A stretch of DNA of 64,000 nt from Verrucomicrobiota bacterium (GTDB lineage: Bacteria > Verrucomicrobiota > Verrucomicrobiia > Limisphaerales > CAIMTB01), in assembly GCA_963205105.1 (NCBI GenBank), contig CAUJJW010000111.1, forward strand, positions 6,465 to 70,464, in the 5' to 3' direction. The notes beneath the pieces were generated by a model. It worked only from the letters and a program-made list of their open reading frames with translations, was not told the DNA's origin and searched no databases. Shown piece after piece: positions 1,745 through 55,352 of the stretch; position 1 is the first letter of the stretch; every line of letters starts with the position of its first letter. Position numbers and translations under genes: made by a program.

Positions 1745-2189
1745 CGCGAGCGGGACGCCCGCTACGGAGGCACGGTGCATCGAGAGTCCCCACGATTCAC
1801 GAATCGCGCAATGGGACCATGAACCGAGGCGCGAGAAGTGGAGCGGGCGGCCCTCATCCCGGCCTTCTCCCGGAGGGAGAAGGAGACGATGCGCCGCGAG
1901 GTTTGCAGGGTTGAGGCAGGCGTTCGCTGGAACGAGTTGAGACGGCTCGGAAGAACGGAGTACAGGCATGTCCCCGAGGGCAGGACGCGACACCCTCTCC
2001 CTCCGGGAGAGGGCTGGGGTGAGGGAGCCCGTTTCAACCCTCGCGATTGCTGGCATGCAAAGGTTTATGGGTAGGAGCGTTTTCCAAATTCAGGACACGC
2101 ATCGGGCCCATGAACCGGGGATTCCGGGGGGCGAGACGCCCCCCTCTACGGCAGGCGGGACGCCCGCCGTTACGGACGCGCGGTTCATG
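1745..2189 (-). repeat. Mosaic repeat island: RepA fragment 1752-1768, RepJ-like, RepB(-) 1813-2070, RepJ(-) 2063-2116, RepA(-) 2109-2189
   Basis: Reverse-complement copies of the modules at 375-751, but in a different module order. The terminal tcATGAACCg (minus strand) contains the TGA stop of the pseudouridine synthase gene (2185-2187). Confidence 0.85.
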
Positions 2190-2925
2190 AAGCACCCCGC
2201 CCCAACTCCGCCACTTCACCCTGGGTCAACTTGCGGAACGCTCCTTTTGCCAGCGAACCCAGTTCCAGGTTTCCCACCCGTATCCGGATCAGCCGGAGCA
2301 CTTCCCATCCGAACGCTTCCACCAGTCGGCGGATATGCCGGTTGCGTCCTTCATCCAGCACGATCTCGACCCAGCAGTTCTTCTCGCCGGAGCGCAGCAG
2401 CGAGACCTGTCGCGCCGACAGCTTCTCGCCGTCCACGACCACCCCAGCCTCCAACAGACGCAACTGAGCCTCATCAAGCAAGGCGTTCACCTGGACGTGG
2501 TAGGTCTTGAGAATTTTCGACTCCGGATCGGTGATGACCGCCGCCCAAGCGGTGTCGTTGGTCACCAGCAGCAGACCTTCGCTGGCTCGGTCCAGGCGCC
2601 CTACCGCCGACACGTGCGGTGCGTCCACGCCCTTCAAGCACTCGTACACCGTCGCCCGGCCCTGCTCGTCCGAAGCGGTGGTCACCAGTCCGCGCGGTTT
2701 GTTGAGCATCAGGTAGACCTTGGTCGCGGCGGCGGCGGGTTTTCCATCGACCTCAATCCGATCGCGCCCCGGTCGCACCCGTTGTTCGGGGTCGCGGCAG
2801 ACCACGCCGTTCAGGCGGACCCGACCGGCCTCAATGCGACGCCACGCTTCGGCGCGTGAACACACCCCGAGTTTGGAAAGTTCCCGCGCCAGACCGTGCC
2901 CCGCGGATGCCGGATGAGATTCCAT
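2185..2925 (-). CDS. Pseudouridine synthase, RsuA/RluB/RluF family (S4 domain plus catalytic domain)
   Basis: Starts at internal ATG M61 of ORF 2185..3105; the upstream codons lie in palindromic RepG. It has an S4-like LSKLGVCSRAEAWRRIEAGRVRLNG, then KVYLMLNKPRGLVTT, then the catalytic-Asp motif VGRLDRASEGLLLVTND. Confidence 0.85.
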   Translation of the reverse strand: MESHPASAGHGLARELSKLGVCSRAEAWRRIEAGRVRLNGVVCRDPEQRVRPGRDRIEVDGKPAAAATKVYLMLNKPRGLVTTASDEQGRATVYECLKGVDAPHVSAVGRLDRASEGLLLVTNDTAWAAVITDPESKILKTYHVQVNALLDEAQLRLLEAGVVVDGEKLSARQVSLLRSGEKNCWVEIVLDEGRNRHIRRLVEAFGWEVLRLIRIRVGNLELGSLAKGAFRKLTQGEVAELGRGAS

Positions 2926-2985
2926 GCGAACCCCGCGATTCGGCCGGCAGATGTCCGGAATTGGCAACCGATTCCTCCGGGGCAC

Positions 2986-6386: not shown

Positions 6387-6392
6387 ATCCTG

Positions 6393-8617: not shown

Positions 8618-10213
8618 ATGGACCCGCTTTCCTCCCTCTCGAACCTGCCCCGGCTCGCCGCGGGCGTCGTTCTGGAGTGCGACGTCGCCCGACGCGAGCT
8701 CATCCGCGCCGGCATCCAAGCCTGGCAGGATTCAGACACCAGCCTTCCCACGATCCCCTGGCTCGGTCCGGTCCAACTCAGCTGGCGCTACTATCTCGCC
8801 TCCAAGAAACAACAGCTTCTGCTGTCGTTCCGGCGACGGCCCGAGCAAATCGACATCGCCCTCGACTCCAGCCTCCGGTTCCGGGTGGAACCCAGCCCTC
8901 TCCCCGTCCCGTCCCTGTCCGGTTCTTCGACGACGCCACCCGCCCCTGCTGAATCCGTGCCGCCCCTACCCGCGAACGGCGGTTCCGTAGCGGCGGGCGT
9001 CTCGCCTGCCGTAGAGGGGGGCGTCCCCCCCCCCGGAATCCCCTCCAGTTCAACACCTCCCAGTAAGACGTCGCCATCGTCCGCTCCTCCCATCAGCAGG
9101 CTCTCCTGGCCACAGTTCCTCGGGCCGTCCTCCCCGAACCTCGCCGTCTTCCATCTCCGACATCGATCCGACCGCCGACGACTCGAGCTCCCGATCCTCA
9201 AGGATGCCATTCACTTCCCGGCCGCACGTTTGTTCCAGGGCGACGACTCCATCCCGTTGCAGCAGGGCAACGCGTTGCTGCTGGAACCCTTGGTCGACTG
9301 GATTCAGACCATCGGTGCCTGGAAACGCGACCCCGACGCAAACTCCTCATGGCGGCCCCTAACTCCTCCGGCCGACCAGGAATCGCTGCCTGCCCGCCGC
9401 ATCCTGGCGTCGATCGTGGGGACGTATCAGGAAGCCTGCCAGGCCGCGGCCAACCGTTCCCCGGGCCCGCTCCCACCCCCGCCGGACGCCGTCGATCCGT
9501 TGCCTCACGGCCAAACCATCGCCGAGTTTACCGGCATGACCTGGCTTCGACTGCAAGCGGATGGCACCGCCATTGCGGAGAAAGGCTCCGACGACACCAC
9601 CACGCTGGAAATGCGCTACAACCTCGAACACGAAGACGGCCGTGACCGCCTCGACGTTCGACTGCAACCGCCCGACTTCCTGATCTCTGGCGACCTCCAC
9701 CGCCAGATCCTCAGCACCGTCGGCCAGGCCGCCCTGGATGCGAACTGGCACCGACCCAACGGACCCCTGGGCCGGGGCACCGGGGTCTCGGAGCAGGAAG
9801 TGCAAGACCTGTTCGCCCATGCCGACGCCACGGTCCTCCGCATTGAACGAAGGCGCGATCGCGACCGGGACCTGATCCTTCTCCGCGGCTCGCTCCAGGG
9901 CGTTCAGGTCTGGGTGGTCCTCACCGCTTGGCTGGCCGTTGGAAAACCGACCGACCGACAGCAGCCCAAGACCCGAACCCTGTTCGTCTCACCACCCCCC
10001 CCACCCGCTGGCCACCAAGGCCACGGCGGTCCCGATCTCGTCAACACGTTCGACAAGAACAACGACGCGATGACCTGCCTCTTCGTGGGTGAACGATTCA
10101 CCGACGACACCGTGGTTCCCGCCAGCGTCGCGAAGTCCTTCGGTCGGATCATGCTCGCCATGCATCGCTGGGGCGGGATCTGGCCGCCCACCGAAACCAT
10201 GTCCTCCCCATGA
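8618..10213 (+). CDS. Hypothetical protein, orphan operon gene 4 (531 aa), carrying an in-frame RepA insertion
   Basis: The N-terminus LAAGVVLECDVARRELIRAGIQAW followed by VQLSWRYYLASKK echoes genes 1-3. A Pro/Ser-rich linker includes repeat-encoded SVAAGVSPAVEGGVPPPGIP. The TGA stop lies inside the CATGAACC terminus of RepA copy 10209-10290. No catalytic or NTP-binding motifs seen. Confidence 0.7.
   Translation: MDPLSSLSNLPRLAAGVVLECDVARRELIRAGIQAWQDSDTSLPTIPWLGPVQLSWRYYLASKKQQLLLSFRRRPEQIDIALDSSLRFRVEPSPLPVPSLSGSSTTPPAPAESVPPLPANGGSVAAGVSPAVEGGVPPPGIPSSSTPPSKTSPSSAPPISRLSWPQFLGPSSPNLAVFHLRHRSDRRRLELPILKDAIHFPAARLFQGDDSIPLQQGNALLLEPLVDWIQTIGAWKRDPDANSSWRPLTPPADQESLPARRILASIVGTYQEACQAAANRSPGPLPPPPDAVDPLPHGQTIAEFTGMTWLRLQADGTAIAEKGSDDTTTLEMRYNLEHEDGRDRLDVRLQPPDFLISGDLHRQILSTVGQAALDANWHRPNGPLGRGTGVSEQEVQDLFAHADATVLRIERRRDRDRDLILLRGSLQGVQVWVVLTAWLAVGKPTDRQQPKTRTLFVSPPPPPAGHQGHGGPDLVNTFDKNNDAMTCLFVGERFTDDTVVPASVAKSFGRIMLAMHRWGGIWPPTETMSSP
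8981..9053 (+). repeat. RepA copy inside the CDS of orphan-operon gene 4 (in-frame)
   Basis: GGTTCCGTAGCGGCGGGCGTCTCGCCTGCCGTAGAGGGGGGCGTCCCCCCCCCCGGAATCCCC. It is translated as SVAAGVSPAVEGGVPPPGIP. Confidence 0.85.
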
Positions 10214-10334
10214 ACCGCGCCTCCGTAGCGGCGGGCGTCCCGCCTGCCGTAGAGGGGGGCGTCTCGCCCCCCGGAGTCCTCGGTTCACGGTCCCATTCTG
10301 TGTCCAAGATTTTGGAAACCTTGTCCTCCCCATG
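10209..10334 (+). repeat. RepA(+) 10209-10290 followed by RepJ 10282-10334
   Basis: CATGAACCGCGCCTCCGTAGCGGCGGGCGTCCCGCCTGCCGTAGAGGGGGGCGTCTCGCCCCCCGGAGTCCTCGGTTCACGG, then tcccattctGTGTCCAAgatTTTGGAAACcttgtcctcCCCATGA. Confidence 0.9.
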
Positions 10335-10790
10335 ATCTCCGCTCGACCCACCCTCCGCTGGATAGCCCGTGCCCTTTTTGAAGGCTGGTGCCTCCTCGGC
10401 AAGTTGCTGCGGCCCGCACGTCACGGTCGGGACCACGCCCGAGCTCCCCGCCCCGTGGTCACCCGGCCGGTGCCCGGCGTCGAGGTGCGGGTACGCCTCG
10501 ACCGGCGCGAAGCCACGACAGGAACTGAGGCTCGCTCCCCAATTGTCCCGCAAGCGTCCGCTTCGTCGAACGCGCTCATCGAAGGGAAGATGGAGGAAGC
10601 CTGGAAGAACGAGATGGCCAGAGCGGAAGAGCTCTTGCTGAACGGCGTTAGGATCCCGGACCCGAGCCTCATCCAGTCCACCGGGGCGGTGTTCCAGGGA
10701 GCCGTCACAGGCTCGACGGATGCCAGGCGGATCGCCTGGGTTTCGGTCAGGCCCGTCCAGGAACAGTCAGGAGGAGAGTCCGCTTCTTGA
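10332..10790 (+). CDS. Hypothetical protein (tentative fifth gene of the orphan operon)
   Basis: Internal ATG of ORF 10089..10790, placed exactly at the CCCCATGA end of a RepJ module. The C-terminal half (MEEAWKNEMARAEELLLNGVRIPDPSLIQSTGAVFQGAVTG) looks protein-like. It overlaps the convergent methyltransferase gene by 44 nt. Weak call. Confidence 0.3.
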   Translation: MISARPTLRWIARALFEGWCLLGKLLRPARHGRDHARAPRPVVTRPVPGVEVRVRLDRREATTGTEARSPIVPQASASSNALIEGKMEEAWKNEMARAEELLLNGVRIPDPSLIQSTGAVFQGAVTGSTDARRIAWVSVRPVQEQSGGESAS

Positions 10791-14905: not shown

Positions 14906-14976
14906 AACAGGGATCCCCGGGGGCGAGACGCCCCCCTCTACGGCAGGCGGGACGCCCGCCGCTACTGGCCGTCACT
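14901..14976 (-). repeat. RepA(-) wedged exactly between two convergent stop codons
   Basis: ccTGAaacagggatccccgggggcgagacgcccccctctacggcaggcgggacgcccgccgctactggccgTCA. The TGA at 14903-14905 (plus-strand gene) and the TCA at 14972-14974 (minus-strand gene stop) sit in the degenerate terminal motifs. Confidence 0.85.
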
Positions 14977-41661: not shown

Positions 41662-42110
41662 ACCGTGAAATCGTTTCGTTGATTTCCAACGACTTACAAT
41701 TTCGCGGTTCAAGGGCCGTGAGCAGGTCGATTTCGAACAGGTGGCTCTCCATGAACCTACCCTCCCCTCGTCATCGTACTCCTACTCCTAATCGTAATCC
41801 CCCCGCCTCCCCAGGTTCATGGCCCGTGAGCATGGCGCCTGCGCCAACGCCGCTCTCGATGAACCTTTCCAGACAAGCCATCGCGAGGGTTGAACAGGGC
41901 TCCCTCACCCCAACCCTCTCCCGGGGGGAGAGGGAGTCGCGTCCTGCCCTCGGGCACATGCCTGTACCCCGTTCTTCCGAGCAGTCTCAACTCGTTCCAG
42001 CGAACCCTTGGATCAACCCTCCAAAACCCGCGGCGACGATTCTCCTTCTCCCACCGGGAGAAGGCCGGGATGAGGGCCGCCCGCTCCACTCCTCGCGCCT
42101 CGGTTCATGA
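41653..42110 (+). repeat. Mosaic repeat island: RepE(+) 41653-41712, RepD(+) 41706-41757, RepI 41750-41822, RepD fragment, RepB(+) 41855-42110
   Basis: Forward-orientation counterparts of the modules at 35230-35729 and 795-876. It starts at the stop codon of the PmoA-like gene. Confidence 0.9.
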
Positions 42111-42138
42111 TCGCCATCCATGTCTCATGCCTCAATAG

Positions 42139-43440: not shown

Positions 43441-45334
43441 TCTCCTTCAACTTCGACTGTTCCGCGCCGAACGGTCCTGGGTTCGGCACCCGGGATCGTC
43501 GTTCGTTGCCAAAGAAATCCCGGTCGATCGTCAGCGGCGAACCATCCGCGTTCTCGTAACCCACCCCCGGAGTCTTCGCCTTCCCCAACAACGACGTGGT
43601 CACGGGTACCGTCTTCGCCTCCCGTAACTGGTCACCCCAGTCCACCCGCAGCTTCACCCCATCCGCGGACACATTGAGCACGAAGGGGTCCGGACCTTGT
43701 GGCACCACCACGGCCCCGGGTTCCTTCGCGCCGGGCCTCGCCGCACGGAAGTAGATATTGCCCGACGCCAAGGTGGGCAGTTCCCGAAAGTCGTACACCC
43801 AGAGTCCGTGGCCTCCCTGCCACTCCGGGTCCTTCGTCTCCCGTCCGTCGCGAACTCCCGCATCCTCGCCGCGCCCCACAAAGATATTGTTCACAAAGCG
43901 ATTGTCCCCGCCCCGGATCGTCGCCAATCCCGCCACGGTCGTGGAGTGTGCTGGATGGAACGGGGTTTCACGGCTGGGCTCGGGTCGGCTGATGATTTTG
44001 CCCGCGAACAGATTGTGCGCGTAAGCCCCGCCCTCGGACATGTCCAGCAGGCTGACCGGGGACAGGAACAGATTGTTGTCGACCATGAACGGGCCGTGGT
44101 TCACCTCGACGAACAGGTCCTGGCCGCTGTTGTCATGGAAGAGATTTCCCGACACCCGCGTTCCCTGCGCCATCCAATCGAGCCAGAGCCCGAGGCAGGT
44201 GTGGTGGATGTGGTTGCCTTGAATCACCGAATCGATGGCCGCGTGGAACTTGATGCCCGCCATCTCAGCTCCCGTGAACAGGCGCCGTACGTGGATGTCA
44301 TGGATGACATTGCCCGTCACCGTGCTGAAGGCCGCGCCCAGACTGCCGACGATGCCCGCCTGTTCGCAGTGGGAGATGGTGTTGTTGCGCACCACGTGGT
44401 GGCCGATGGTGTCGCGGTTCCAGCCTCGTTCCAGCGCGCGTTCGATCGTCTTCACGTAACCCTCCGCCGAATTCGCCGAGGTGTTGTCCCAGCGATCCCC
44501 ATGCTTGCCGAGAGCGATCCCGGAACAGATCGAGTGGCTGATGACGTTGTCCTCGATGATCCAGCCCTTGCTCCAATGCGTGCCGATCAGGCCCTTCTGC
44601 TCCGCGGTCGGCGGCGCCCAGGGTGTGGCGGCATGTCGCAGGGTGAAGCCGCGCACCGTCAGGAAATTCCGTCCCGGTTGATCCGGGTAGAAGACGGTCT
44701 GCCGAACGTTGATCTCCACCCGCCGTTCGGTCGGGTTCACCCCGGGAAAGCGCGCCCAGATCGTGGTGTTCGTCGCCTCGACAGCGGCAAACCAGAGCTT
44801 GGCCTTGGGCGCTGCAGCGTCGCCACCCGGCGCGAACACATCCTCCTTCTTCGCCGCCTCGCTCAACCACTCACCGTCCAAGTACACCGCCCCGGTGTGA
44901 TGTTCGCGCCCCTTGCCTTCAAACCAGTCGCCCCGGATCCGGTCGTTGTAAGGGTTGAAGCTCCCAAAGAACGTGTTGGGCAAGGTCACCGACCAGACGT
45001 CGTCCGCCACCGTCACCCAGTGTTTGACCACCTCCGATCCCAGGATTTCCACCGTCTCGCCTTTCGCGGCCTGGTAGGTGATGCGGCGCTGATCGGAGTC
45101 GCCGCCCCGTAGCGGATTCACCCGCTCACGGTAGGTCCCTGCACGCACGGTGATGACATCCCCGGGTTGGGCGAGTTCAGCGGCGCGCTGGATGGAGCGC
45201 AACGGTTCGTCCCGGGTGCCTCGACGCGTGTCATCGCCGCGCGTGTCGACGAAGAATTCGGCACCGGGGACAGGGCAAGCGGCCCACACGATTCCCGATG
45301 CCAAGACCAAGCCCAGCCAGGATTGAAGGTTCAT
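43427..45334 (-). CDS. Secreted right-handed parallel beta-helix repeat protein (pectate-lyase-fold)
   Basis: Internal ATG MNLQSWLGLVLASGIVWA of ORF 43427..45742, located in an ATGAACC repeat terminus. LRSIQRAAELAQPGDVITVRAGTYRE plus repeated NNxIxH/GN beta-helix turns (VRNNTISHCEQAGI, VTGNVIHD, IQGNHIHH, VSGNLFHDN). Confidence 0.75.
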   Translation of the reverse strand: MNLQSWLGLVLASGIVWAACPVPGAEFFVDTRGDDTRRGTRDEPLRSIQRAAELAQPGDVITVRAGTYRERVNPLRGGDSDQRRITYQAAKGETVEILGSEVVKHWVTVADDVWSVTLPNTFFGSFNPYNDRIRGDWFEGKGREHHTGAVYLDGEWLSEAAKKEDVFAPGGDAAAPKAKLWFAAVEATNTTIWARFPGVNPTERRVEINVRQTVFYPDQPGRNFLTVRGFTLRHAATPWAPPTAEQKGLIGTHWSKGWIIEDNVISHSICSGIALGKHGDRWDNTSANSAEGYVKTIERALERGWNRDTIGHHVVRNNTISHCEQAGIVGSLGAAFSTVTGNVIHDIHVRRLFTGAEMAGIKFHAAIDSVIQGNHIHHTCLGLWLDWMAQGTRVSGNLFHDNSGQDLFVEVNHGPFMVDNNLFLSPVSLLDMSEGGAYAHNLFAGKIISRPEPSRETPFHPAHSTTVAGLATIRGGDNRFVNNIFVGRGEDAGVRDGRETKDPEWQGGHGLWVYDFRELPTLASGNIYFRAARPGAKEPGAVVVPQGPDPFVLNVSADGVKLRVDWGDQLREAKTVPVTTSLLGKAKTPGVGYENADGSPLTIDRDFFGNERRSRVPNPGPFGAEQSKLKEIKLR

Positions 45335-45742
45335 AAAAGGGAACGATTTCCAACCATGGGACACGTCTCGGGACCATGAACCGCGACGCGAGGAGTGCAG
45401 CGGGCGGCCCTCATCCCGGCCTTCTCCCGGAGGGAGAAGGAGAATAGGCGCCGCGGATTTCGGAAGGTCGTGCCATGCGTTGGCGGCAGCGAGTCGAGTC
45501 GGCTCGTTCGGCGGGACTTCTGGCAGGTCGCCACGCGGCATGCGCGACACCCTCTCCCCCCGGGAGAGGGGCGGGGTGAGGGAGCCCGGTTCAACCCTCG
45601 CGATGGCTTCCATGGGAAGGTTCACGGAAAGCCACCTGTTCGAAATCGACCTGCTCACGGACCTTGAACGGGGGATTCCGGGGGGCGGGACGCCCCCCTC
45701 TACGGCAGGCGGGACGCCCGCCGCTACGGATGGAAAGTTCAT
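45334..45742 (-). repeat. Mosaic repeat island: RepJ(-) 45334-45382, RepB(-) 45370-45627, RepD(-) 45619-45668, RepA(-) 45664-45740
   Basis: GGTTCATaaaagggaacgatTTCCAAccaTGGGACACgtctcgggaCCATGAACC, then a RepB copy, and so on. The outermost ATGAACC (minus strand) is the beta-helix gene's start. Confidence 0.9.
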
Positions 45743-45823
45743 GGAGTGATTCGCCTGATCAGTCGCGAGTCACGGCCTGCGCGCAAAAGAATTGTGGGGA
45801 GCCACGCTGCCGCGGGACGCACC

Positions 45824-46197: not shown

Positions 46198-46278
46198 AAT
46201 CGCTCTCCTTAGGATCTCCTCGAATCCCGGGCCAACCGAACCCAGGATGCTCCCGCGCACCCCCAACGCAGCGCCGCC

Positions 46279-49188
46279 ATGAACACCGATCGCCGAATCT
46301 GGGCTGGCAACCGCATCGCCCTTCCGGGCTTCCTGGTCCTCGCTCTCCTGGTCTTCTGGACGGCATCGTTCAACGCCATTTCACGGCAGTCCCTCCCCCT
46401 GGCCGGCACGTGGCGCTTCTCCCTGGACCCCTCCGACGAGGGCCTGCGGGAACAGTGGTTCACCCGTCGTCTTGATGGTCAGGTGCGCCTCCCAGGATCC
46501 CTGCCCCAGCAGGGCATCGGGGATCCTGTGACCACCAACACCACCTGGACCGGTGGCATCGTGGATCGTTCCTGGTTCACCGCCCCCGAATTCGAACCCT
46601 ACCGCATCCCAGGTTCCGTGAAGGTCCCGTTCTGGTTGCAGCCGGAAACCGTCTACACCGGCGCCGCCTGGTACCAGCGCGACATCGATATCCCGGCCGG
46701 TTGGGAAGGCCGCCGCGTCGTGCTATTCCTGGAGCGCCCGCATTGGGAAACCCAGGTCTGGGTCGATGACCAACTCGCCGGCGCCGTCGACACCCTCGGC
46801 ACACCTCACGAACACGATCTCGGCCCCCTGTATCCCGGTCGCCACCAACTCACCGTCCGCGTGGACAACCGCCGGATCGTCGATATTGGCGAGAACTCCC
46901 ACTCCATCTCCGACCACACCCAGGGCAACTGGAACGGCATCGTCGGACGCATCGAACTCCAGTCCACGCCACCGGTCTGGCTGGACGAAGTGAACGTCTA
47001 CCCGGACCTCGCCGCGAAAGGCGTCCTCGTCCGCTGGCGGGTGGGCAACACCACCGGACTGCGCGCCCCGGTCACGCTCACTTGCGCCGTCCGATTCAAG
47101 AACCCTCCGGGACGCGAAGTGGCCATCCGCAAGAACCTGGAATTCGAGTTCGGACCCGGCGGTGGAAGTGGTTCCACCGAACTCTACCTCGACCGCTGGG
47201 CTCGGCCCTGGGACGAGTTCGATCCCCAGCTGTACGTCGTCCGCGTGGAACTGCGCACCACCGACGGCCTGGTGGACCGCCGTGAGGTGCCGGTTGGTCT
47301 GCGCGACATCAAGGCCGAGGGAACCCAGTTCACCCTCAACGGCCGGCCGCTCTTCCTCCGTGGCACCCTGGAGTGCTCCATCTTCCCACGCACCGGCCAC
47401 CCACCGGTCGACGTCGAATCCTGGCGCCAAGTCATTCGCGCTGCCCAGGCGCATGGACTGAACCATCTGCGCTTCCACTCCCATTGTCCGCCGGAAGCCG
47501 CCTTCGAAGCCGCCGACGAACTCGGCATGTACCTCCAGGTCGAAGCCTCCATCTGGGCCAACCAATCCACCACCCTGGGCGATGGCAAACCCGTCGACTC
47601 CTGGGTCTATGCCGAGACCGAACGCATCCTCCGGACCTATGGCAACCACCCGTCCTTCATCCTGATGACGTCCGGCAACGAACCCGGTGGCCCGCGCCAT
47701 GCCGAGTTCCTCAGCCAGTGGGTGGAACACTTCAAAACCCGGGACACGCGACGTCTGTGGTCTTCCGCGTCCGGCTGGCCGCAACTCCCGGTGAACCAAT
47801 GGCACTCGTCCCCCGATCCACGCGTTCAAGGTTGGGGCGAAGGCCTCAACTCCCGCATCAACGGGAAGCCTCCCGAAACCCTGACCGACTACCGCGCCTA
47901 CATCGCCGCCCGCCCCGTCCCCGTGGTGAGTCACGAAATCGGACAGTGGTGCGTCTACCCCAACTTCGAGGAGATGCGGAAATACACCGGCTACTTGAAG
48001 CCCCGGAATTTCGAGATCTTCCAGCAAACCCTCGCCGCCCACGGACTCAGCCATCTCGCCCGCCCGTTCCTCCTGGCCTCGGGCCGACTGCAAACCCTGT
48101 GCTACAAGGAAGACATCGAGTCCGCCCTGCGCACCCCAGGCATGGCCGGGTTTCAGTTGCTGGATCTCCACGATTTCCCGGGACAAGGCACCGCCCTCGT
48201 CGGAGTCCTGGATCCGTTCTGGGAAAGCAAAGGGTACGTCTCCGCTTCCGAGTTCCGCCGTTTCTGCGGCCCTACCGTCCCTCTCGCCCGACTGCCCCAA
48301 CGGGTCTTCACCCAGGACCAACGACTCGAAGCCGACGTCGATGTCGCCCACTTCGGTCCCCAGCCCATCACCCAGCGCAAAGCCACCTGGACGCTGCTCG
48401 ATGACCGCGGCTTCACGGTGAAGCGCGGAGCATTCGACGCCATTGACCTTCCCACCGGGCAGCTCACCCGACTGGGCCGCGTGGAAGCCGACCTCACGCA
48501 AGTCCCCGCCCCCGCCCGCTACCGGCTGGTCGTGAACGTCGCCGGCCGCCCGGCCATCGAGAACGACTGGGACCTCTGGGTCTACACACCCAACCCTCCC
48601 ACCACTCCGCCCGCCAACCTGCGCGTGGTTTCCCAACTCGACGCCGATGCCGCCAACGCGTTGGAAAACGGGGAACGCGTGCTCTGGCTCATTCCACCTG
48701 CCCAGGTCCGGCCCGATCCACAACGCGGCCCGGTGGCTCTCGGGTTCTCCAGCATCTTCCGGAACACGGCCTGGACCGGCGGCCAGGCCCCCCACACCCT
48801 CGGCATTCTCTGCGATCCCAGGCACCCGGCGCTCAGTTACTTCCCGACCGAAACCCACAGCAACTGGCAGAGGTGGTACGTGGTCCGCCACGCCGGCGCC
48901 CTGATCCTGGATGAACTTCCGGCCAACCTCGAACCCACCGTGCGCGTGATCGACGACTGGGTCACCGCCCGCCGACTCGCCCTCGCCTTCGAAGCCCGGG
49001 TGGGAGCCGGCAAATTGTTCGTCTGCTCGGTCGATCTGAACACCGAGGCCGGTCTCGACCCGGTCCGACGCCAGTTCCGCACGAGCCTGCTGAACTACCT
49101 GGGCAGCGACCGCTTCCAGCCGCAGACCACTCTCAGCCTGGAAGAAGTGCGATCCCTGGCGAAACCCGACACGTCCGCCCAGCGGTGA
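46279..49188 (+). CDS. Glycoside hydrolase family 2-like protein
   Basis: Signal/anchor IALPGFLVLALLVFWTASFNA. GH2 sugar-binding region (WRFSLDP...AAWYQRDIDIP..VVLFLERPHWETQVWVDD), then TIM-barrel region (GLNHLRFHSHCPPEAAFEAADELGMYL, TSGNEPGG). Confidence 0.8.
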   Translation: MNTDRRIWAGNRIALPGFLVLALLVFWTASFNAISRQSLPLAGTWRFSLDPSDEGLREQWFTRRLDGQVRLPGSLPQQGIGDPVTTNTTWTGGIVDRSWFTAPEFEPYRIPGSVKVPFWLQPETVYTGAAWYQRDIDIPAGWEGRRVVLFLERPHWETQVWVDDQLAGAVDTLGTPHEHDLGPLYPGRHQLTVRVDNRRIVDIGENSHSISDHTQGNWNGIVGRIELQSTPPVWLDEVNVYPDLAAKGVLVRWRVGNTTGLRAPVTLTCAVRFKNPPGREVAIRKNLEFEFGPGGGSGSTELYLDRWARPWDEFDPQLYVVRVELRTTDGLVDRREVPVGLRDIKAEGTQFTLNGRPLFLRGTLECSIFPRTGHPPVDVESWRQVIRAAQAHGLNHLRFHSHCPPEAAFEAADELGMYLQVEASIWANQSTTLGDGKPVDSWVYAETERILRTYGNHPSFILMTSGNEPGGPRHAEFLSQWVEHFKTRDTRRLWSSASGWPQLPVNQWHSSPDPRVQGWGEGLNSRINGKPPETLTDYRAYIAARPVPVVSHEIGQWCVYPNFEEMRKYTGYLKPRNFEIFQQTLAAHGLSHLARPFLLASGRLQTLCYKEDIESALRTPGMAGFQLLDLHDFPGQGTALVGVLDPFWESKGYVSASEFRRFCGPTVPLARLPQRVFTQDQRLEADVDVAHFGPQPITQRKATWTLLDDRGFTVKRGAFDAIDLPTGQLTRLGRVEADLTQVPAPARYRLVVNVAGRPAIENDWDLWVYTPNPPTTPPANLRVVSQLDADAANALENGERVLWLIPPAQVRPDPQRGPVALGFSSIFRNTAWTGGQAPHTLGILCDPRHPALSYFPTETHSNWQRWYVVRHAGALILDELPANLEPTVRVIDDWVTARRLALAFEARVGAGKLFVCSVDLNTEAGLDPVRRQFRTSLLNYLGSDRFQPQTTLSLEEVRSLAKPDTSAQR

Positions 49189-49220
49189 ACCGGCAAAACA
49201 AGATTCTTTCCGTCAACTCC

Positions 49221-50654
49221 ATGAACCTCCTGCCGCAACACATCGCCGGATTCTTGGTTGTCCTCGCAACGTCCCAACTCGCGCTGGCCCCCGAGTCACA
49301 CGGCGCGGATGCCGAAGACGGGTTTCGGCCCATCTTCGACGGCCGCTCCCTGGCCGGCTGGGAAACCCCGGAGGGCCGTTACTGGACCATCGAGGACGGC
49401 GCCATCACCGGTCGCATCACCCCGGAGCAGCCGTGCACCATCAACCAGTACCTGGTCTGGACCGGCGGCGAACTGGCCGATTTTGAACTCAAACTAAAAT
49501 CCCGCCTGAACGGCCAGGGCGGCATCAACAACGGCTTTCAGTTCCGCAGCCGGCTGCTCCCCGACCACGACGTCTGCGGCTACCAGGTCGACAACAACCT
49601 CCAAACCCCCTGGCTGGTCCGCCTCTACGATGAGTTCGGACGCCACACCCTCGCCATGCGCGGGGAACGCGCCGCGTTCAACGCCCTGAACCAACGCACC
49701 GCCTCCCCGCTCCCCGAATCGGCCGGAACCGCATGGTTCAAGTTGGAGGAATGGCACGAGTACCACCTCGTCTGCCGCGGTTCCCGAATCTCCCTGCACG
49801 TCGATGGACGTCTCGCGGCTGAGGTCGACGACCACGACCCGCACCGTGCCGAGGCCCAGGGCATTCTCGCGCTCCAGCTTCACAGCGGTCCGCCCACCGT
49901 CGTGCAGTTCAAGGACATCCGGCTCAAGATCCTGAAACCGGCCGCCTCGCCGACTCCTCCGCCAACAGTCTCGCCCGCCCTGGAACGTCTCCAACAGGAA
50001 GCAGTGGCCTGGTGGTCGCTCGACACCGGTGGCCACGGGGCCAAACCACCGCTCCGCCACATTCCCGGGTGGGACCAGTTCGAACTCAACGTTCGCCCGT
50101 CCGGACCCGGCGCCCGCGCCAACACCAAAATTGTCACCCTCGACGGAGCCCACTTCGAAACTGAACCCTCGTTCCCCCTGACCTCCGGCCCCTTCACGGT
50201 CTTCATCCGCGCGTTTCAACCGAAAGGCCCTTGGAACGCCGCCCTGCTTGCGAAACCAGGCCAGGACGGCACCGCCGGATTGCGATGGTTCTTCGATGAC
50301 CTTCCCGAGACCCCCGGCCCCGACCTGGTCCTTGAGCTCGGCGGACCCGCTGGAAAAGCCAGCGTCCACGCGCCGCTGATGTCGACGAACCCGGCCGCTT
50401 GGATGGACTTGGTGGCCCGTTGCGACGGCAGAACGCTGGCGCTGTTCATCGACGGTGAACGCCGGGCTTCAGCCGAAGGGTCGGGGTCCTGGAACAGTTC
50501 CGGTCAACCGCTGCTGCTGGCCGCGGAGCGTCAAGGCGATCGGGTGGTGCGGCACGTTCGCGGCGAGATGGAGACCACAGCGGTCTGGTCCCGGGCGTTG
50601 AGCGACGAGGAGATCCGGACCCTGACTCAACCGGCACGCGGTGAAGGACCATGA
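49221..50654 (+). CDS. DUF1080 (3-keto-disaccharide hydrolase-like) plus LamG/concanavalin-like domain protein
   Basis: Start MNLLPQHIAGFLVVLATSQLALA (signal peptide) at a CTCCATGAACC motif. FRPIFDGRSLAGWE...WTIEDGAITG...LQLHSGPPTVVQFKDIRLK is the DUF1080 pattern. The C-terminal half is LamG-like. Confidence 0.75.
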   Translation: MNLLPQHIAGFLVVLATSQLALAPESHGADAEDGFRPIFDGRSLAGWETPEGRYWTIEDGAITGRITPEQPCTINQYLVWTGGELADFELKLKSRLNGQGGINNGFQFRSRLLPDHDVCGYQVDNNLQTPWLVRLYDEFGRHTLAMRGERAAFNALNQRTASPLPESAGTAWFKLEEWHEYHLVCRGSRISLHVDGRLAAEVDDHDPHRAEAQGILALQLHSGPPTVVQFKDIRLKILKPAASPTPPPTVSPALERLQQEAVAWWSLDTGGHGAKPPLRHIPGWDQFELNVRPSGPGARANTKIVTLDGAHFETEPSFPLTSGPFTVFIRAFQPKGPWNAALLAKPGQDGTAGLRWFFDDLPETPGPDLVLELGGPAGKASVHAPLMSTNPAAWMDLVARCDGRTLALFIDGERRASAEGSGSWNSSGQPLLLAAERQGDRVVRHVRGEMETTAVWSRALSDEEIRTLTQPARGEGP

Positions 50655-50940
50655 ATGGGGGACTCCGGGGGGCGAGACGCCCCCCTCTACGGCAGGCGGG
50701 ACGCCCGCCGCTACGGAGGCCCGGAGGGCCGAAAGAACGGAAGCCCATGGCGTGAGCCATGGGTCGGAAGTCGAAATGGATTTCGAGCCCCGGAGGGGCG
50801 ACAGAACCGACCGCGTTGAGGTTGGTTTTTAGGGAAAGTCACGACATTCGGCCCTCTCCCTGCATTCCTGATCGCCCCTCCAGGGCTTTGGGATTCCCGC
50901 AGGCGCAGTCCCCAGGACTCACCGCCCCCTCGCCCAAACC
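50649..50940 (-). repeat. Composite RepA(-) 50649-50716, RepFb 50717-50810, RepFa 50868-50935
   Basis: The terminal ccATGAAtgg contains the TGA stop (50652-50654) of the DUF1080/LamG gene. RepFb hairpins are GGCCCGGAGGGCC and CCCATGGCGTGAGCCATGGG. Confidence 0.85.
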
Positions 50941-51756: not shown

Positions 51757-54495
51757 ATGAATCCCTTCGCCCATCTCGGACTCCTCTGGCGCCGCTTCAC
51801 CCTGCGCCATTGGAAGGACACACCCGGACAGACCTTCCTGCTGGTCCTGATTCTCGCGCTCGGCATCGCGGTTTACTTCTCCATCCGCCTCGCCAACCGC
51901 GCCGCCACCGCCAGCTTCCTGCACTTCACCGACCTGGTGACCGCCGAGAGCGACTGGCTGATCCAGGCCCCCGCCGGCGACCTCCCCGAGTCCGTGCTCG
52001 CCGAACTGCGATCCCGCCTCGACGGCGCTCCAGTCCACCTGGTGCCCATCGTGGAATCCACCGCCACCGCCCCGCCCAAGGGCGAACCGGAAACCATCGG
52101 CAGCCGTCCCACCTTCCGCCTGCTCGGCGTGGATCTCATCGGCATCCAAAACATCGCCCGTGATGAAGCCGAACGTTCCCCGGACTGGTTCGGCCCGGGA
52201 AACAAAGCAGCCCCTTCCACGACCGACGTCCCATCCGTCCCATCGGTCCCATCTTCCCACACCAACGCCACCCCTGACTCAGAATCTCGGTTCTGGACTG
52301 TTCTGCGCGACCCCACCTCCGTCTTTATCAGCGACGCGCTCGCGCGCCGTGACGGTCTGGCGGCCGGCAGTCGTCTGCCTCTCATTCTCAACGAAACCAT
52401 CGTCCCGCTCACCGTGGCCGGCGTCATCCCAGCTCTCCCCGGCCAACCTGCCGCACCCCCCGAGTTGTTGGTCATGGACCTGCCCGCCTTGCAGCATTGG
52501 ACCGGAAGAACCGGACTCCTCACCCGCCTTGAATTCCGGGTGGAACCCGGCCCCAACGCGGAAGGACGCCGAAGCCAACTGCGGGACGACTTGGAAACCT
52601 GGGGACGATCCACCCATTCCACCGACGCCGCACGTTGGCTGGTCCGATCACCCTCGGAACGTCGCGACGCCGGCGCCGTCATGACCCGGGCGTTTCGCCT
52701 CAACCTCACCATTCTCTCCCTCCTGGCCTTGCTCGTCGGCATGTACCTGGTGGTCCAGGCCCTCGATGGCGCCGTGGTCCGTCGGCGTGCAGAAATTGGC
52801 GTACTCCGCTCGCTAGGCGTCGAGGCGGCCACCCTGCGACGCGCCTGGCTGCTCGAAGCGGGCGTGGTCGGTGTGCTGGGCGGTCTGCTCGGCGTGCTCC
52901 TCGGCTGGGCCGGCGCCCAAGCCTCCGTCCGGCTCGTCGGAAAAACCGTCAACGCCCTCTACTACGCCACCAGCGCCGATTCCGCCGCACTTACCCCGGG
53001 GGAACTCGCCGGCGCCCTCGTCCTGTCCGTGACCTCCGCCTTGCTCGCCGGTTGGTGGCCTGCCCGCGTCGCCGCCAACGTGCCCCCCGCCCAGCTGCTC
53101 GCCCGACACGCCCAATCCGCACCCGCCGCCTGGGCCCTCCAACATCCCTTTCTCGGCCTTGGCCTGATCCTGGCCGGAATCGCCTGCGCCATGCTCCCTC
53201 CGCTGCGCTTCGACGGCGGTGTCCGGTTTCCCGCCGGCGGCTACGCCGCCGCCGTGCTCTGGATCGCCGGCGCCGGTATCCTCGGCAGCCGCGCTTTGTC
53301 CGGCGCCGCACGCGTGCTTCGACCGCTCGGACGTCATGCCGCCGTGTGGCGCTTGGGCATCAGCCCCTTGATCACCCCGTCCGGCCGTCACGTGCTCGCC
53401 ACCGCCGGCCTGATCTGCGCCGTCGCCATGACCGCCGGCATGGTCATTCTCGTCGGAAGCTTCGACCGCACCATGCGCGGGTGGATCGAACGAACGTTCC
53501 AGGCCGACCTGTACGTCTCGAGCGCCGGCGCCCAAAGCGCTTCCACCGACAACCGCCTTTCCCCGGCCACCTGGAAGGCACTCATCGAAGACCCGGCCGT
53601 CGCCGACGCCAATGTGCTCCACGGCATTGAAGTGCTGCTCCCGGGCGGCACCACCATTCTTGCCGCTGGCGATCTCGGGTTCCTGCGTCGACGCGTCCAA
53701 CTCGCTTGGGTCGAGAAACCCACCGACCTGAATGCCGCCTTCGCAGCCGCTCCCCTGGCGGATGGCCAACCAGTCTCCGCCCTGGTCAGCGAAAGCTTCT
53801 CGGAACGGTTCCAACAGCACCGTGGCGACCTGGTGAACCTGCCCACACCGTCGGGCAGCAAAAGCGTTCGCATCGCCGGGGTGTTCGCCGATTACGGCAA
53901 CGAACGCGGCTCCCTGGTCATTGACCGTGGCCTGTTCGTGGAGTGGTTCAAGACCGACCTGGCGGCGAGTGTCATCGTCTCATTGCGCGACCCGGCGCAG
54001 GCGGAGGCCGTTCGGTCGGCGTGGCTGGCGAAGCACCCGGGGCTTCAGATCCTGACCAACGGCCATCTGCGCACGGAGGTGTTGCGGATCTTCCGTCAGA
54101 CGTTCTCGATCACCTACGCCCTCGAAGCCATCGGACTGACCGTGGCGGTGTTGGGCCTGGGCATGACCCTGGCGAGTGTGCTGATCGAACGACGGGCGGA
54201 CTGGACCACGCTGAGGGCGCTGGGCTTGCGACCGGAAGAACTGGCCCGGGTGGCGGCGATTGAAGGCCTGGTGGTCGCCGCGGCGGGTCTCCTGGTGGGA
54301 CTCGCGGTTTCCAGCGCCTTGGGATGGCTGTTGATCCGGGTCATCAACAAACAAACCTTCGGGTGGACCTTGGAGTTTGCCGCGCCGATGGGCCCGCTGG
54401 TGCTTCTGGCGTTGCTCGTGTTGGCGGGCGCCACCTCGGTGAGTTATGCCGTCGGTCGCTGGGGCGCTCAATTGCCCGCGGACCGCGAGGAATGA
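51757..54495 (+). CDS. ABC transporter permease with two FtsX-like domains (MacB/AttF-G-like)
   Basis: Start MNPFAHLGLLWRRF. Two blocks of four TM segments, each preceded by a large extracytoplasmic region. Has the typical FtsX-domain loops (GVLRSLGVEAATL, LRALGLRPEEL). Confidence 0.85.
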   Translation: MNPFAHLGLLWRRFTLRHWKDTPGQTFLLVLILALGIAVYFSIRLANRAATASFLHFTDLVTAESDWLIQAPAGDLPESVLAELRSRLDGAPVHLVPIVESTATAPPKGEPETIGSRPTFRLLGVDLIGIQNIARDEAERSPDWFGPGNKAAPSTTDVPSVPSVPSSHTNATPDSESRFWTVLRDPTSVFISDALARRDGLAAGSRLPLILNETIVPLTVAGVIPALPGQPAAPPELLVMDLPALQHWTGRTGLLTRLEFRVEPGPNAEGRRSQLRDDLETWGRSTHSTDAARWLVRSPSERRDAGAVMTRAFRLNLTILSLLALLVGMYLVVQALDGAVVRRRAEIGVLRSLGVEAATLRRAWLLEAGVVGVLGGLLGVLLGWAGAQASVRLVGKTVNALYYATSADSAALTPGELAGALVLSVTSALLAGWWPARVAANVPPAQLLARHAQSAPAAWALQHPFLGLGLILAGIACAMLPPLRFDGGVRFPAGGYAAAVLWIAGAGILGSRALSGAARVLRPLGRHAAVWRLGISPLITPSGRHVLATAGLICAVAMTAGMVILVGSFDRTMRGWIERTFQADLYVSSAGAQSASTDNRLSPATWKALIEDPAVADANVLHGIEVLLPGGTTILAAGDLGFLRRRVQLAWVEKPTDLNAAFAAAPLADGQPVSALVSESFSERFQQHRGDLVNLPTPSGSKSVRIAGVFADYGNERGSLVIDRGLFVEWFKTDLAASVIVSLRDPAQAEAVRSAWLAKHPGLQILTNGHLRTEVLRIFRQTFSITYALEAIGLTVAVLGLGMTLASVLIERRADWTTLRALGLRPEELARVAAIEGLVVAAAGLLVGLAVSSALGWLLIRVINKQTFGWTLEFAAPMGPLVLLALLVLAGATSVSYAVGRWGAQLPADREE

Positions 54496-54496
54496 A

Positions 54497-55352
54497 CGCG
54501 ACCATGAACAGCGAACGGGGATTGGCGAATCGCGAATCGCGAAAAGCGGGCTCCTCCGTAGCGGCGGGCGTCCCGCCTGCCGTAGAGGGGGGCGTCTCGC
54601 CCCCCGGAATTCCAGGTTCATGGTTCCTAAGCGCGAGTTGTCATTCGTGGATGCCCCACAGGAACACCATCTTTTCGCCAGCCACGGAGTGGCGCCAGAA
54701 CCCTAGCCCACGGCGTGAGCCGTGGGTGCCACGTGAAGAATGGATTCAGCCCCGGACGGGGCGATCAGAATCCCCCGATCGGGGCTCCACCCCATCCAAC
54801 CTCCCGGTGACGCGTTGCTATGTGGCGTTTCTGGCCGCCCCTCCGGGGCTCCATTTCCCACGGCACGCCCGACCCATGGCTGACGACATGGGCTTCCGTT
54901 CTTTCGGCCCTCCGGGCCTCGCAGATCACCCCTTCTCCATCAACCTGGCCTTCGTAGCGGCGGGCGTCCCGCCTGCCGTAGAGGGGGGCGTCTCGCCCCC
55001 CGGATTCCCCCAGGATTTACGATCGGTGAGCAGGTCGGTTTCTAACAGCGCGCTGATCATCAACCTTCCCATGCAAGCGATCGCGAGGGTTGAAAACAGC
55101 TCCCTCACCCCAACCCTCTCCCGGCGGGAGAGGGAGTCGCGTTTCACCCGCCACAGCTGCCCACATGGCCATGCGTCCGAGCCGTCCCGACTCGTTCCAG
55201 CCAACCCCAGGCTCAACCCTCCTGGAACCGCGGCGCATGTTCTCCTTCTCCCTCCGGGAGAAGGCCGGGATGAGGGCCGCCCGCTCCACTCCTCGCGCCA
55301 CGGTTCACGGTCCCCTGGTGTGTCCCCATGTTGGCAAACATCGCGCCCCATG
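54497..55352. repeat. ~850-nt repeat island: RepA(+) 54553-54625, RepFa(-) 54700-54790, RepFb(-) 54830-54925, RepA(+) 54950-55015, RepD-like 55020-55062, RepB(+) 55056-55310, RepJ 55302-55352
   Basis: All modules match copies elsewhere in the window. The island separates the FtsX permease gene from the AttH-like gene. The final CCCCATGAACC supplies the AttH-like start codon (55350). Confidence 0.85.

Follow-up and report, generated by a model that had tools for sequence, protein, structure and literature searches.

The stretch of DNA analyzed here (64,000 nt, hereafter “the window”), from a Limisphaerales-like verrucomicrobium, carries GH2, DUF1080/LamG, DUF6807 (“PmoA-like”), M16, AttH/CrtC-like, beta-helix, pseudouridine synthase, and ABC-2 genes, identities that had been proposed from the sequence and are confirmed by Pfam. 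Between these genes, and in places inside them, lie mosaic repeats assembled from several modules, among them hairpin doublets of the GTAG REP type. The modules follow the order core-X-inverted core-Y-core, where X is either RepA, the GTAG-type REP hairpin doublet, or another module of 40–290 bp (D, E, F, or G), and Y is a short linker (B or C). There are at least eight module types, and arrays hold different modules in alternating orientation rather than head-to-tail copies of one unit. X modules are bounded by inverted repeats (CCWTGAACC...GGTTCAWGG). RepA consists of two hairpins, GGCGGG-cgt-CCCGCC and GGGGGGCG-tct-CGCCCCCC, and CCGTAG precedes both hairpins in every copy; the element found in one relative, L002, has the form GTAG...CTAC. 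The 20-mer core of RepA has 13 exact copies in the 64 kb, three of them intragenic. Folded as single-stranded DNA, RepA has a dG of −29.3 (z −4.4) and the L002 REPIN a z of −9.0, with the hairpins closed by the cores. A search of Rfam matched only the Acido-Lenti-1 motif, in another module, and scans of the arrays found no sigma-70 promoters. The reverse strand of module C carries a GGAAC-N17-CGT(C/A) pattern that resembles ECF promoters.

The junction core is 13 bp long (CTCTCC-ATGA-ACC), and the 9-mer described in the original prediction is its center, i.e., the motif spans 9–13 bases. There are 21 exact matches to CCATGAACC/GGTTCATGG on the two strands of the window, compared with 0.80 expected, and none of 100 shuffles reaches 21. 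Allowing up to one mismatch, CCATGAACC has 57 matches, compared with 18.9 expected; the original estimate of more than 25 sites therefore holds once near-matches are included, but not for exact matches. As had been claimed, the matches lie at module ends, in alternating orientation, and bound nearly every module. A core ATG or TGA forms the boundary of at least 11 genes.

Array 1 (375..929, plus strand) comprises modules D (reverse complement), C, RepA, B, F, and C′, with cores at 624(−), 670, 744(−), 787, and 875(−), and ends on the native start of a TIM-barrel gene (CCCATGAAA, ATG 923). Array 2 (1740..2192) lies between the convergent stops of the TIM-barrel gene (1736–1738) and the pseudouridine synthase gene (2185–2187, minus strand, in tCATGAACC). 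A RepA copy in frame in gene 8618–10213 (8966..9050, plus strand) corresponds to about 33 aa missing in the L020 orthologue. The same gene ends at a [RepA][C] unit (10208..10335, plus strand) inserted into a native ATGA stop/start overlap; TGA 10211–10213, inside an exact core, is supplied or retained by the left core, and ATG 10332 is retained by the right CCCATGAtc. Further along, a reverse-oriented RepA (14899..14976, minus strand) fills the gap exactly between convergent stops 14903–14905 and 14972–14974, as originally described. A truncated module C with module D (16915..17191) is found upstream of a multihaem cytochrome gene (minus strand). A solo RepA (21949..22036, plus strand), with CTCTCCtTGAACC on its left and GGTTCA on its right, sits in a divergent intergenic region, and a composite element (32953..33353) contains RepA (reverse complement), an Acido-Lenti-1-containing module, and others, its left side having no core. 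The M16 array (35231..35733, minus strand) reads core-B-RepA-core-B-E-core-C-D-core on the minus strand, with the M16 ATG (35238) in the terminal core.

In the second half of the window, an array on the plus strand (41652..42157) runs from the DUF6807 stop (41659–41661, inside an exact core) to the PD40 start at 42151 (CTCTCCATGAAAC). A C-D-B-RepA array (45328..45746, minus strand) places the beta-helix/GH120-like ATG (45334, minus strand) in ttATGAACC at the end of module C; its other end at 45746, like the solo RepA at 21949, carries a core away from any gene boundary. The GH2 start (ATG 46279) lies in a lone core-like CCATGAACa (46277..46285, plus strand) with no repeat module attached. Likewise, the native GH2 stop (49186–49188, cgGTGAACC) and a lone exact core with the DUF1080/LamG ATG (49221) are both outside repeats (49183..49227, plus strand) and both conserved in L001. 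The DUF1080 stop (50652–50654, in CCATGAAtg) is followed by a 266-nt insert made of a reverse-complement RepA and an Acido-Lenti-1 module (50648..50921 with the stop, minus strand). Between the FtsX-like and AttH-like genes, an array (54490..55356, plus strand) begins at the FtsX-like stop (54493–54495, gaATGAACg) and ends with ATG 55350 in the core that closes module C. Inside the AttH-like gene is an in-frame RepA+B unit (55665..55791, plus strand) of 37 aa; PDB 2ICH lacks it, as do 12 of 13 homologues. In 57816..58220 (plus strand), a spacer of 54 nt separates a D-B-half RepA array from CCATGAAAC, the native and core-like start (ATG 58214) of a ThuA/DUF7133 giant gene; in L002, module C abuts the orthologous start. 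The giant gene holds an in-frame RepA of its own (61268..61346, plus strand), 27 aa long and absent from L002.

The coincidence of the core with start and stop codons has a simple component that the original prediction missed: the core resembles the start context of the clade. Among 63 repeat-free starts in relatives, the native consensus is ccATGAAcc, which is the core, position by position (−2 C,.51; −1 C,.46; +4 A,.51; +5 A,.37; +6 C,.49; +7 C,.38). With about 50% at each, the flanking positions carry little information, so the match may partly reflect C-richness of the coding strand and an A-rich second codon. A general preference for TGAACC as stop context is weakly indicated at best (5 of 85 stops in relatives, compared with about 2.4 expected). 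Since the core equals the native start consensus, most boundary coincidences are native codons beside which units integrated in register, and the boundaries at 49221, 46279, 923, and 49186 are plain native ones.

This bears directly on the gene boundaries listed in the original prediction. The stops at 10211–10213, 41659–41661, 50652–50654, and 2185–2187 and the starts at 55350, 35238 (minus strand), and 45334 do lie in the core as described; the starts at 42151, 46279, 39586, 38336, and 58214, also on the core, had been overlooked. The sequence at stop 14903–14905 (CCcTGAAaC) is a degenerate RepA end, and the stop is at its native position: both convergent stops around this RepA occupy native positions in L019 and L020, and the ABC-2 stop in L019 has a core-like TGAAC. 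The sequences named for 49186–49188 and 49221 are correct, the latter an exact core, but neither adjoins a repeat, and both are unchanged in L001. What had been taken for degenerate copies at 923 (CCCATGAAA) and 10332 (CCCATGATC) are native contexts, also found in relatives that have no insertion. That plain native boundaries would turn up had been named beforehand as a refuting outcome; for the genes at 49221, 46279, 923, and 49186 it does refute repeat-borne codons, yet it is precisely what targeting of such boundaries predicts. Each of the two readings first offered, targeting of ATGA-type boundaries and repeat-borne codons, is right for a subset of boundaries.

Comparison with relatives gives three clean filled/empty pairs (n = 3, the DUF1080 pair having no core on its right side), each with a core-like sequence at the insertion point. 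The empty sites are of three kinds: a native ATGA overlap (CCCATGATC), a native stop (CCGTGAAC), and a single core inside an array. First, the site of the window's 122-nt [RepA][C] unit, which stands between two CCCCATGA copies, is in L020 a bare ATGA overlap of 4 nt. Second, L001 has a bare stop, GGACCGTGAAC followed by AGACCCC, where the window carries the 266-nt insert (50656–50921) directly after CCATGAA. Third, L019 has an extra [G][C″] unit between two CTCTCCATGAACC copies where the window has the single core at 787. Other junctions also vary. After the DUF6807 stop, L003 shares the core but carries a different module; after the FtsX stop, the modules in L001 differ from those in the window; and the FtsX-like/AttH-like junction is TGAtATG in L002 and an 855-nt array in the window. 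Overall, array content differs between the window and L001, L003, L019, and L020, and units have been gained, lost, or swapped at the core among relatives that are 91–97% identical. In L002 and L004 the core flanks different REP/REPIN families, and it recurs in other metagenome lineages. A 20-mer from module B has 13 metagenome matches, of which those in L007, L009, L014, and L016 are chance matches in unrelated genes, and L012, L013, and L018 duplicate L010 and L011.

Three boundaries are repeat-borne as judged from sequence comparison: the starts of the AttH-like and M16 genes and the stop of the pseudouridine synthase gene. The native AttH start in L001 aligns to ATC in the window, leaving the end of module C as the sole usable ATG. 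The first ~18 codons of the M16 gene are repeat module, with no other in-frame start before the signal peptide. Compared with L020 and L022, the pseudouridine synthase gene has had its native TAG-terminated tail replaced and stops at the core TGA. Repeat-borne codons thus appear to serve some genes now, after the native codon was lost or replaced; for the ATGs, the position of the signal peptide is the single ground on which use in vivo is deduced.

Arrays are kept translationally transparent. Spacings between cores of the same orientation are multiples of three in 34 of 51 cases, and 27 of 138 stops overall fall in the ATG frame, figures that count copies of the same few modules and so represent a small effective sample. 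No stops lie in that frame in the three largest sense arrays (0/17, 0/12, and 0/8), and array stops concentrate in the TGA frame. On the sense strand, the ORFs that core ATGs open either continue in frame into the gene downstream or terminate in an ATGA on its start codon. In the M16 array, the four minus-strand core ATGs all share the frame of M16 (0/12 stops), the frame of the beta-helix gene is open through 45328..45746 (0/8), and the frame from ATG 54492 is open for 286 codons. Relays take several forms: the ORFs opened by core ATGs 672 and 789 stop at TGA 924–926, overlapping ATG 923; a 41-codon ORF bridges 10210–10335; and ATGA overlaps connect 41658 to 42107 to 42151. Relay or in-frame ORFs are seen in the window and independently in L002, L019, L017, and L001. 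Half of the arrays do not relay but share the frame of the gene that follows (AttH, M16, and beta-helix). Not all units are multiples of three: several in L010 and L015 are not, nor is the 292-nt array from 41857 to 42149. This transparency may result from selection, either against upstream ORFs that are out of frame or for preserved coupling or anti-polarity.

The explanation that probably fits these observations best is that units integrate at core-like gene boundaries and keep a working stop and start there. New units enter at pre-existing core-like sequences, leaving a core on both sides, as the three filled/empty pairs show. In native DNA, such sequences are mostly gene boundaries, and because the core is the start context and contains the ATGA overlap of tightly packed genes, units insert exactly at boundaries. 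The upstream gene then keeps a TGA and the downstream gene an ATG. At some genes, to judge by comparison, the native codon was later lost or replaced, and the repeat-borne codon probably took over. Because the REP hairpins are of the GTAG type, the leading candidate for a catalyst is a RAYT- or IS200/IS605-like single-strand transposase that would insert beside a specific target. We found no transposase or recombinase gene in the window or any fetched locus, no Y1_Tnp matches among called genes of the fetched loci or 20 scanned window proteins, and no full-length parent IS with the same termini in about 300 kb (window plus loci). The small number of clean filled/empty pairs, the cores at 21949 and 45746, and the units whose lengths are not multiples of three also count against the explanation.

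Other transposition models were considered. A classical transposon that duplicates a 4-bp CATG does not fit, since a single core serves adjacent modules and the fixed sequence duplicated in filled/empty pairs is seven bases or longer. A TNA duplication of the IS5 type was likewise rejected, as the flanks form inverted rather than direct repeats. A likeness to the GTTC/CTTG targeting of IS91-type elements is probably a coincidence of sequence. A stronger version of integration at boundaries, which we put forward tentatively, is a “boundary-safe” cassette: a recombinase or HUH transposase would integrate REP units at CC-ATGA-ACC and regenerate both codons, with units that are multiples of three and open in the ATG frame, for ribosome relay.

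A rather unlikely alternative dispenses with a targeting enzyme. The motif would simply be native context, and arrays would spread and be reshuffled by gene conversion between cores or by microhomology-driven template switching, in which a donor unit between two cores elsewhere is copied at a fork or break in a native CCATGA. Identity of the core with the native start consensus suits this model, as do the direct core repeats that bound units, the single in-register copy at empty sites, the swapping of modules at the same core between near-identical genomes, and the lack of a nearby transposase in the fetched loci. However, 7 to 13 bases are short for efficient recombination, yet turnover is high at 91–97% identity. 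The X modules are canonical GTAG REPs/REPINs, which elsewhere depend on RAYTs (PMC3733652), and the DUF1080 insert has no second core on which to switch back.

We consider it unlikely that insertion was random and that selection then spared only elements preserving a stop and a start at tight junctions. Junctions in relatives are very tight (L020, ATGA; L002, TGAtATG), so few insertions would be tolerable, and the in-frame intragenic copies indicate strong filtering. Against this, random insertion predicts a native core plus two element cores; two copies are seen, in register with the native one. The same core also occurs beside units where such selection is not at work, namely within arrays and in a divergent intergenic region. 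Moreover, native sites agree with the core at 7 of 9 positions; for random positions this is unlikely, at an estimated 0.3% or so per site.

A mainly regulatory core, with paired inverted cores forming hairpins that govern initiation, termination, or mRNA stability, is very improbable. Here, position would be selected for function: module C closes on the start codon, and RepA comes right after stops. The consensus module C does fold with the AUG in a 9-bp closing stem (dG −21.5, z −5.0; L002 copy, z −3.7), module C is about 90% conserved between lineages with genes about 80% identical, and REPs near stops are commonly reported (PMC3733652). However, for gene-adjacent copies of module C in the window, folding is not more stable than that of shuffled sequences (z −0.35 to −0.6), so start-codon sequestration by its hairpin is unsupported for those copies. 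Presence or absence varies among close relatives that retain the gene, and conservation is limited to the palindromes, with no covariation seen. Lastly, an ORF-calling artefact, in which spurious long frames in 65% GC DNA cross repeats and mimic boundaries, is hardly credible, for although open frames do extend through arrays and one L001 gene call (10374) starts inside module D, the stop codons are unambiguous, with four in cores, no in-frame start codon lies between 55350 or 35238 and the respective signal peptide, and orthologues confirm the boundaries.

Among known systems, these boundary-coincident core repeats are a variant of the REP/BIME, NIME, MIRU, and RPE kinds. GTAG-tagged REPs, REPINs, and BIMEs have been described previously (Di Nocera et al. 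2013, PMC3733652; Bertels and Rainey 2011, PMC3116915), including REP termini that supply stop codons and REPs embedded in fixed target palindromes; REPs inside ORFs are most numerous in the verrucomicrobium Opitutus terrae (PMC3733652). RepA shares with them a stem-loop palindrome, a terminal GTAG, and many, mostly extragenic, copies. It comprises two GTAG-plus-hairpin units, reaches high copy number, and adjoins the 3′ ends of convergent and co-directional genes, and the L002 lineage has an inverted REP pair (REPIN). Unlike GTAG REPs, the codon here comes from the ATGA of a separate 9–13-bp core, not from the TAG of GTAG; the core also flanks non-REP modules, supplies starts, and matches the native start consensus; and no RAYT gene was seen in the window or fetched loci. 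X modules have terminal inverted repeats as MITEs do, but their flanking repeat is always the same core rather than a fixed-length duplication of variable sequence, and one insert has no right copy.

In NIMEs, dRS3 repeats flank RS elements, with the junction ATTCCC-N8-GGGAAT, on which a site-specific recombinase has been proposed to act; the authors state that no genus other than Neisseria had been seen to carry NIMEs (Bentley et al. 2007, PMC1797815). The arrays here likewise have a short inverted-repeat junction between many unrelated modules of 20–300 bp, at syntenic positions with strain-variable content. They are an architectural analogue only: the junction is CTCTCCATGAACC rather than that of dRS3, and coincidence of dRS3 with start/stop codons or phasing is not reported. 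Rickettsia palindromic elements are described as in-frame palindromic repeats in intact protein-coding genes (Ogata et al. 2002, as summarized in PMC3733652). The three in-frame insertions here similarly add 27–37 aa that orthologues lack to genes that are otherwise intact, but most copies are intergenic and joined by the start/stop core.

The bridging ORFs have a parallel in mycobacteria. ORF 10210–10335, the 41658-42107-42151 and 672/789-to-923 relays, the ORF at 13486 in L002, and relays in L019 behave like mycobacterial interspersed repetitive units (MIRUs; Supply et al. 1997), which are reportedly intergenic repeats in operons whose small ORFs overlap the upstream stop and the downstream start. 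MIRUs are tandem copies of one 40–100-bp unit, whereas the repeats here are mosaics with hairpin modules and inverted cores, and in half of the arrays (AttH, M16, and beta-helix among them) the frame joins that of the downstream gene rather than overlapping its start. IS200/IS605 elements and RAYTs transpose as single strands next to a fixed target, bear hairpins, and make no classical variable target duplication. The DUF1080 insert, after TGAA, fits insertion immediately 3′ of a constant short sequence. The conserved flank here differs in being longer than the usual 4–5 nt and present on both sides, inverted or direct, and no transposase gene accompanies it in the window or fetched loci.

For the organism, these arrangements mean that a repeat family could colonize 4-nt gene overlaps, the tightest sites of a compact genome, without breaking either gene, the junction itself being a stop/start overlap. 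Long open frames through arrays mislead gene callers in these Verrucomicrobiota; the RepA+B peptide occurs in 21 representative proteins of a public library, the majority shorter than 270 aa and probably the product of gene calls across arrays. The findings place NIME-like mosaics in a lineage other than Neisseria and MIRU-like ORF bridging in one outside the mycobacteria, and the defined 13-bp core provides a handle for finding the recombinase. Several secreted enzymes appear to owe their start codon or C-terminal end to a repeat. If the “boundary-safe” cassette is real, such elements would rewrite the N- and C-termini of secreted proteins over time, and they may even have shaped the start-codon context of the clade.

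The core, a junction motif of 9–13 bases (CTCTCC-ATGA-ACC), is strongly enriched in the window, with 21 exact matches to CCATGAACC and its complement versus 0.8 expected, a number that none of 100 shuffled sequences came near; with one mismatch permitted, there are 57 matches versus 18.9 expected. By self-comparison, repeats make up ~5 kb of the window and form 16 blocks. The core matches sit at the ends of the repeat modules, with alternating orientation and a single core copy common to adjacent modules, and the conserved block around the core extends further on one side (CTCTCCATGAACC). Modules are of two kinds. X modules, flanked by CCWTGAACC and GGTTCAWGG, comprise RepA (two GTAG-plus-hairpin REPs), D (~280 nt), E (41 nt), F, and G. 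Y modules, flanked by GGTTCAWGG and CTCTCCATGAACC, comprise B, C, and a C variant. The recurring unit is core-X-inverted core-Y-core, e.g., RepA+B (117 nt), E+B (93 nt), and D+C (279–291 nt). When folded as single-stranded DNA, RepA gives a pair of hairpins that the cores close (z −4.4).

Several other features of the modules were observed. The inverted core inside every RepA+B or E+B unit of the window (744, 35275, 35392, 41706, and 55743) is CCTTGAACC, without an ATG, and other lineages (L006, L010, L011, and L015) have CCATGAACC at this position. This points to a single master copy that spread recently, or to an out-of-frame ATG that was removed. Read on its reverse strand, module C has the pattern GGAAC-N17-CGT(C/A) (35450–35496, 45334–45382, and 2070–2116), resembling an ECF sigma promoter that would be directed into module D. 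The Rfam Acido-Lenti-1 RNA motif (RF01687) has four minus-strand matches above the gathering score (25917–25962, 33030–33076, 50717–50763, and 54680–54726), three of them within a repeated module that is longer than the motif and accompanies RepA, which suggests that in this lineage the “sRNA” motif belongs to a mobile repeat. A separate repeat family has paired arms, cacgccaagacgcaaagacg ... ttggcgtctttgcgtctttgcgtgaac (30157–30356, 35880–36051, 45995–46212, and 62970–63384, the last a 210-nt tandem pair), and differs in copy number between the window and locus L001. A hairpin repeat of ACAGGATGAACA-type 9-mers occurs at 2978–3147 and 45823–45993; the copy upstream of a spermidine-synthase-like gene is not present in a 95% relative (L019).

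The original prediction was that the ATG and TGA of the core serve as start and stop codons. Its coordinates were correct and its gene names were borne out, although no repeat is attached to the stop of GH2 (49186) or to the start of DUF1080 (49221), and the contexts at 923 and 10332 are native. Five more starts (38336, 39586, 42151, 46279, and 58214) lie on a core-like 9-mer. The association of the motif with gene boundaries is real and non-random. Among 63 called starts in relatives, chosen because the 150 nt upstream of them lack any motif-like sequence, the majority base is C at −3 (.44), −2 (.51), and −1 (.46), A at +4 (.51) and +5 (.37), and C at +6 (.49) and +7 (.38), i.e., ccATGAAcc. 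Among start dipeptides, MN ranks second (13–14%) in two sets of verrucomicrobial homologues. In coupled genes, stop and start codons overlap in ATGA as standard (PMC6728339). Boundaries are also kept in relatives: the TIM-barrel start CCATGAAATCC in the repeat-poor L022, and the DUF1080 start and GH2 stop in L001. Because of the native majority and these kept boundaries, the core amounts to an idealised native start. Native gene boundaries are the natural source of target sites for the units.

By protein searches, the window belongs to the Verrucomicrobiota, close to Limisphaerales/Pedosphaera-like MAGs. Syntenic loci from a graded series of relatives were compared with the window: L001 (93–97% nucleotide identity), L003 (96% amino acid), L019 (95% amino acid), L020 and L021 (91% amino acid), L002 (about 80% nucleotide), L022 (79% amino acid), and L004 and L005 (about 70% amino acid). 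Several further lineages proved to share these modules and this core when metagenomes were scanned with a 20-mer of module B. In L020, orthologues of the genes at 8618–10213 and 10332–10790 share an ATGA overlap (aatCCCATGAtctcc); exactly in its place, the window has a 122-nt [RepA][C] unit, with ccCCATGAacc on the left and ccCCATGAtct on the right, i.e., one additional core copy, in register. The DUF1080 stop is bare in L001 (GGACCGTGAAC followed by AGACCCC); in the window, it reads CCATGAA, then a 266-nt insert, then CAAACCCC. The window has one CTCTCCATGAACC copy versus two in L019, which flank an additional [G][C''] unit. Downstream of an identical DUF6807 stop core, L003 has RepA and the window E+B, and between the FtsX stop and AttH the modules differ between the window and L001, L002 having TGAtATG only. 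The stops on either side of RepA at 14899–14976 (ABC-2 and cytochrome) are at native positions; at the ABC-2 stop, L019 reads TGAAC. Therefore, new units enter at pre-existing core-like sequence, and array turnover is fast and occurs at the core.

The window and L020 share a 5.2-kb block (6344–11551) that L019 lacks; its five genes, “orphan gene 4” among them, are of unknown function. L001 has a PIN toxin/antitoxin pair (1449–2185; compare window 49192–49204) directly 3′ of the GH2 stop TGAACC, and L002 has a PIN_3/ParD pair (11308–11975) between GTAG hairpins downstream of AttH; small gene cassettes and the repeats seem to share intergenic spots. Two adjacent minus-strand paralogues share a prepilin-type N-terminal segment (18546–18638 and 19523–19615), typical of verrucomicrobial and planctomycete pseudopilins.

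For AttH, M16, and pseudouridine synthase, relatives distinguish repeat-borne from native codons. The AttH start ATG of L001 aligns to ATC in the window, where six additional N-terminal codons begin at the ATG of module C's closing core, immediately followed by the signal peptide. The first ~18 codons of M16 consist of module G's left arm, and L019 shows this module as a full hairpin; no other in-frame ATG, GTG, or TTG lies upstream of the signal peptide. Pseudouridine synthase stops at the TGA of a RepA terminus in the window and L019, and at a TAG seven to eight residues further on in L020 and L022. Thus, both proposals of the original prediction were partly right: targeting of boundaries, from the filled and empty sites, and repeat-borne codons, from these three genes.

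Copies also lie within genes. RepA+B adds 37 residues within the CrtC/AttH lipocalin domain; the window and its 93% relative alone have this insert, which is not found in 12 other homologues or in PDB 2ICH. A RepA copy accounts for 27 extra residues of the giant ThuA/DUF7133 protein versus L002, and another for about 33 of gene 8618–10213 versus L020. In all three, the reading frame splits the core as CC-ATG-AAC-C. A 1.84-billion library has the RepA+B peptide in 21 representative proteins, chiefly short ORFs.

Arrays, i.e., runs of modules joined by cores, are phased. Copies are not independent, so the counts are indicative: spacing is a multiple of three for 34/51 consecutive same-orientation cores versus only 5/58 opposite-orientation spacings; core ATGs of one array-strand share a frame in 8/9 cases; and stops in the core-ATG frame number only 27/138 (0/17 on strands into AttH, 0/12 into M16, and 0/8 into the beta-helix gene), with stops concentrated in the core TGA frame. 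The ORF from core ATG 10210 (41 codons) ends in a TGA overlapping ATG 10332; that from 41658 runs 150 codons to the ATGA at 42107–42110, then 15 codons to a TGA overlapping ATG 42151; single ORFs from 672 and 789 (84 and 45 codons) end in the TGA overlapping ATG 923; and that from 54492, overlapping the FtsX stop, enters AttH in frame after 286 codons. In the M16 and beta-helix arrays, too, the frame is that of the gene. The pattern recurs in L019, L017, and L001, and in L002, with a different REP family, ORFs from 13486 and 13624 terminate on the giant-gene ATG. ORFs from gene-averted cores span only 10–67 codons and end anywhere. The harmful phase, an upstream ORF overlapping the gene out of frame, was seen in 0/8 gene-proximal arrays.

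In MIRUs, ORFs overlap the stop and start codons on either side. GTAG REPs in Verrucomicrobia, REPs <20 bp from 3′ gene ends, TAG stops supplied by REP termini, ORF-internal REPs, and fixed palindromes with embedded REPs are on record (PMC3733652), and NIME arrays, for which a junction repeat is described and a recombinase proposed, were stated to be unknown outside Neisseria (PMC1797815). A literature text search for the core sequence returned unrelated primer-like matches only. Insertion of units into gene overlaps, phasing of arrays, and a junction core that both forms an ATGA stop/start overlap and matches the native start consensus appear to be undescribed.

The locus comparisons show that units are gained, lost, and exchanged under the direction of the core, that native targets are core-like, and that boundary codons are either preserved or replaced. 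The catalyst may be a RAYT/IS200-IS605-like enzyme, because of the GTAG hairpins and insertion immediately 3′ of a fixed sequence; none of the loci examined showed a transposase gene, and template switching between cores, driven by microhomology, is a competing explanation to be taken seriously. Selection may keep the arrays translatable, either to prevent interference from upstream ORFs or to maintain coupling and evade polarity.
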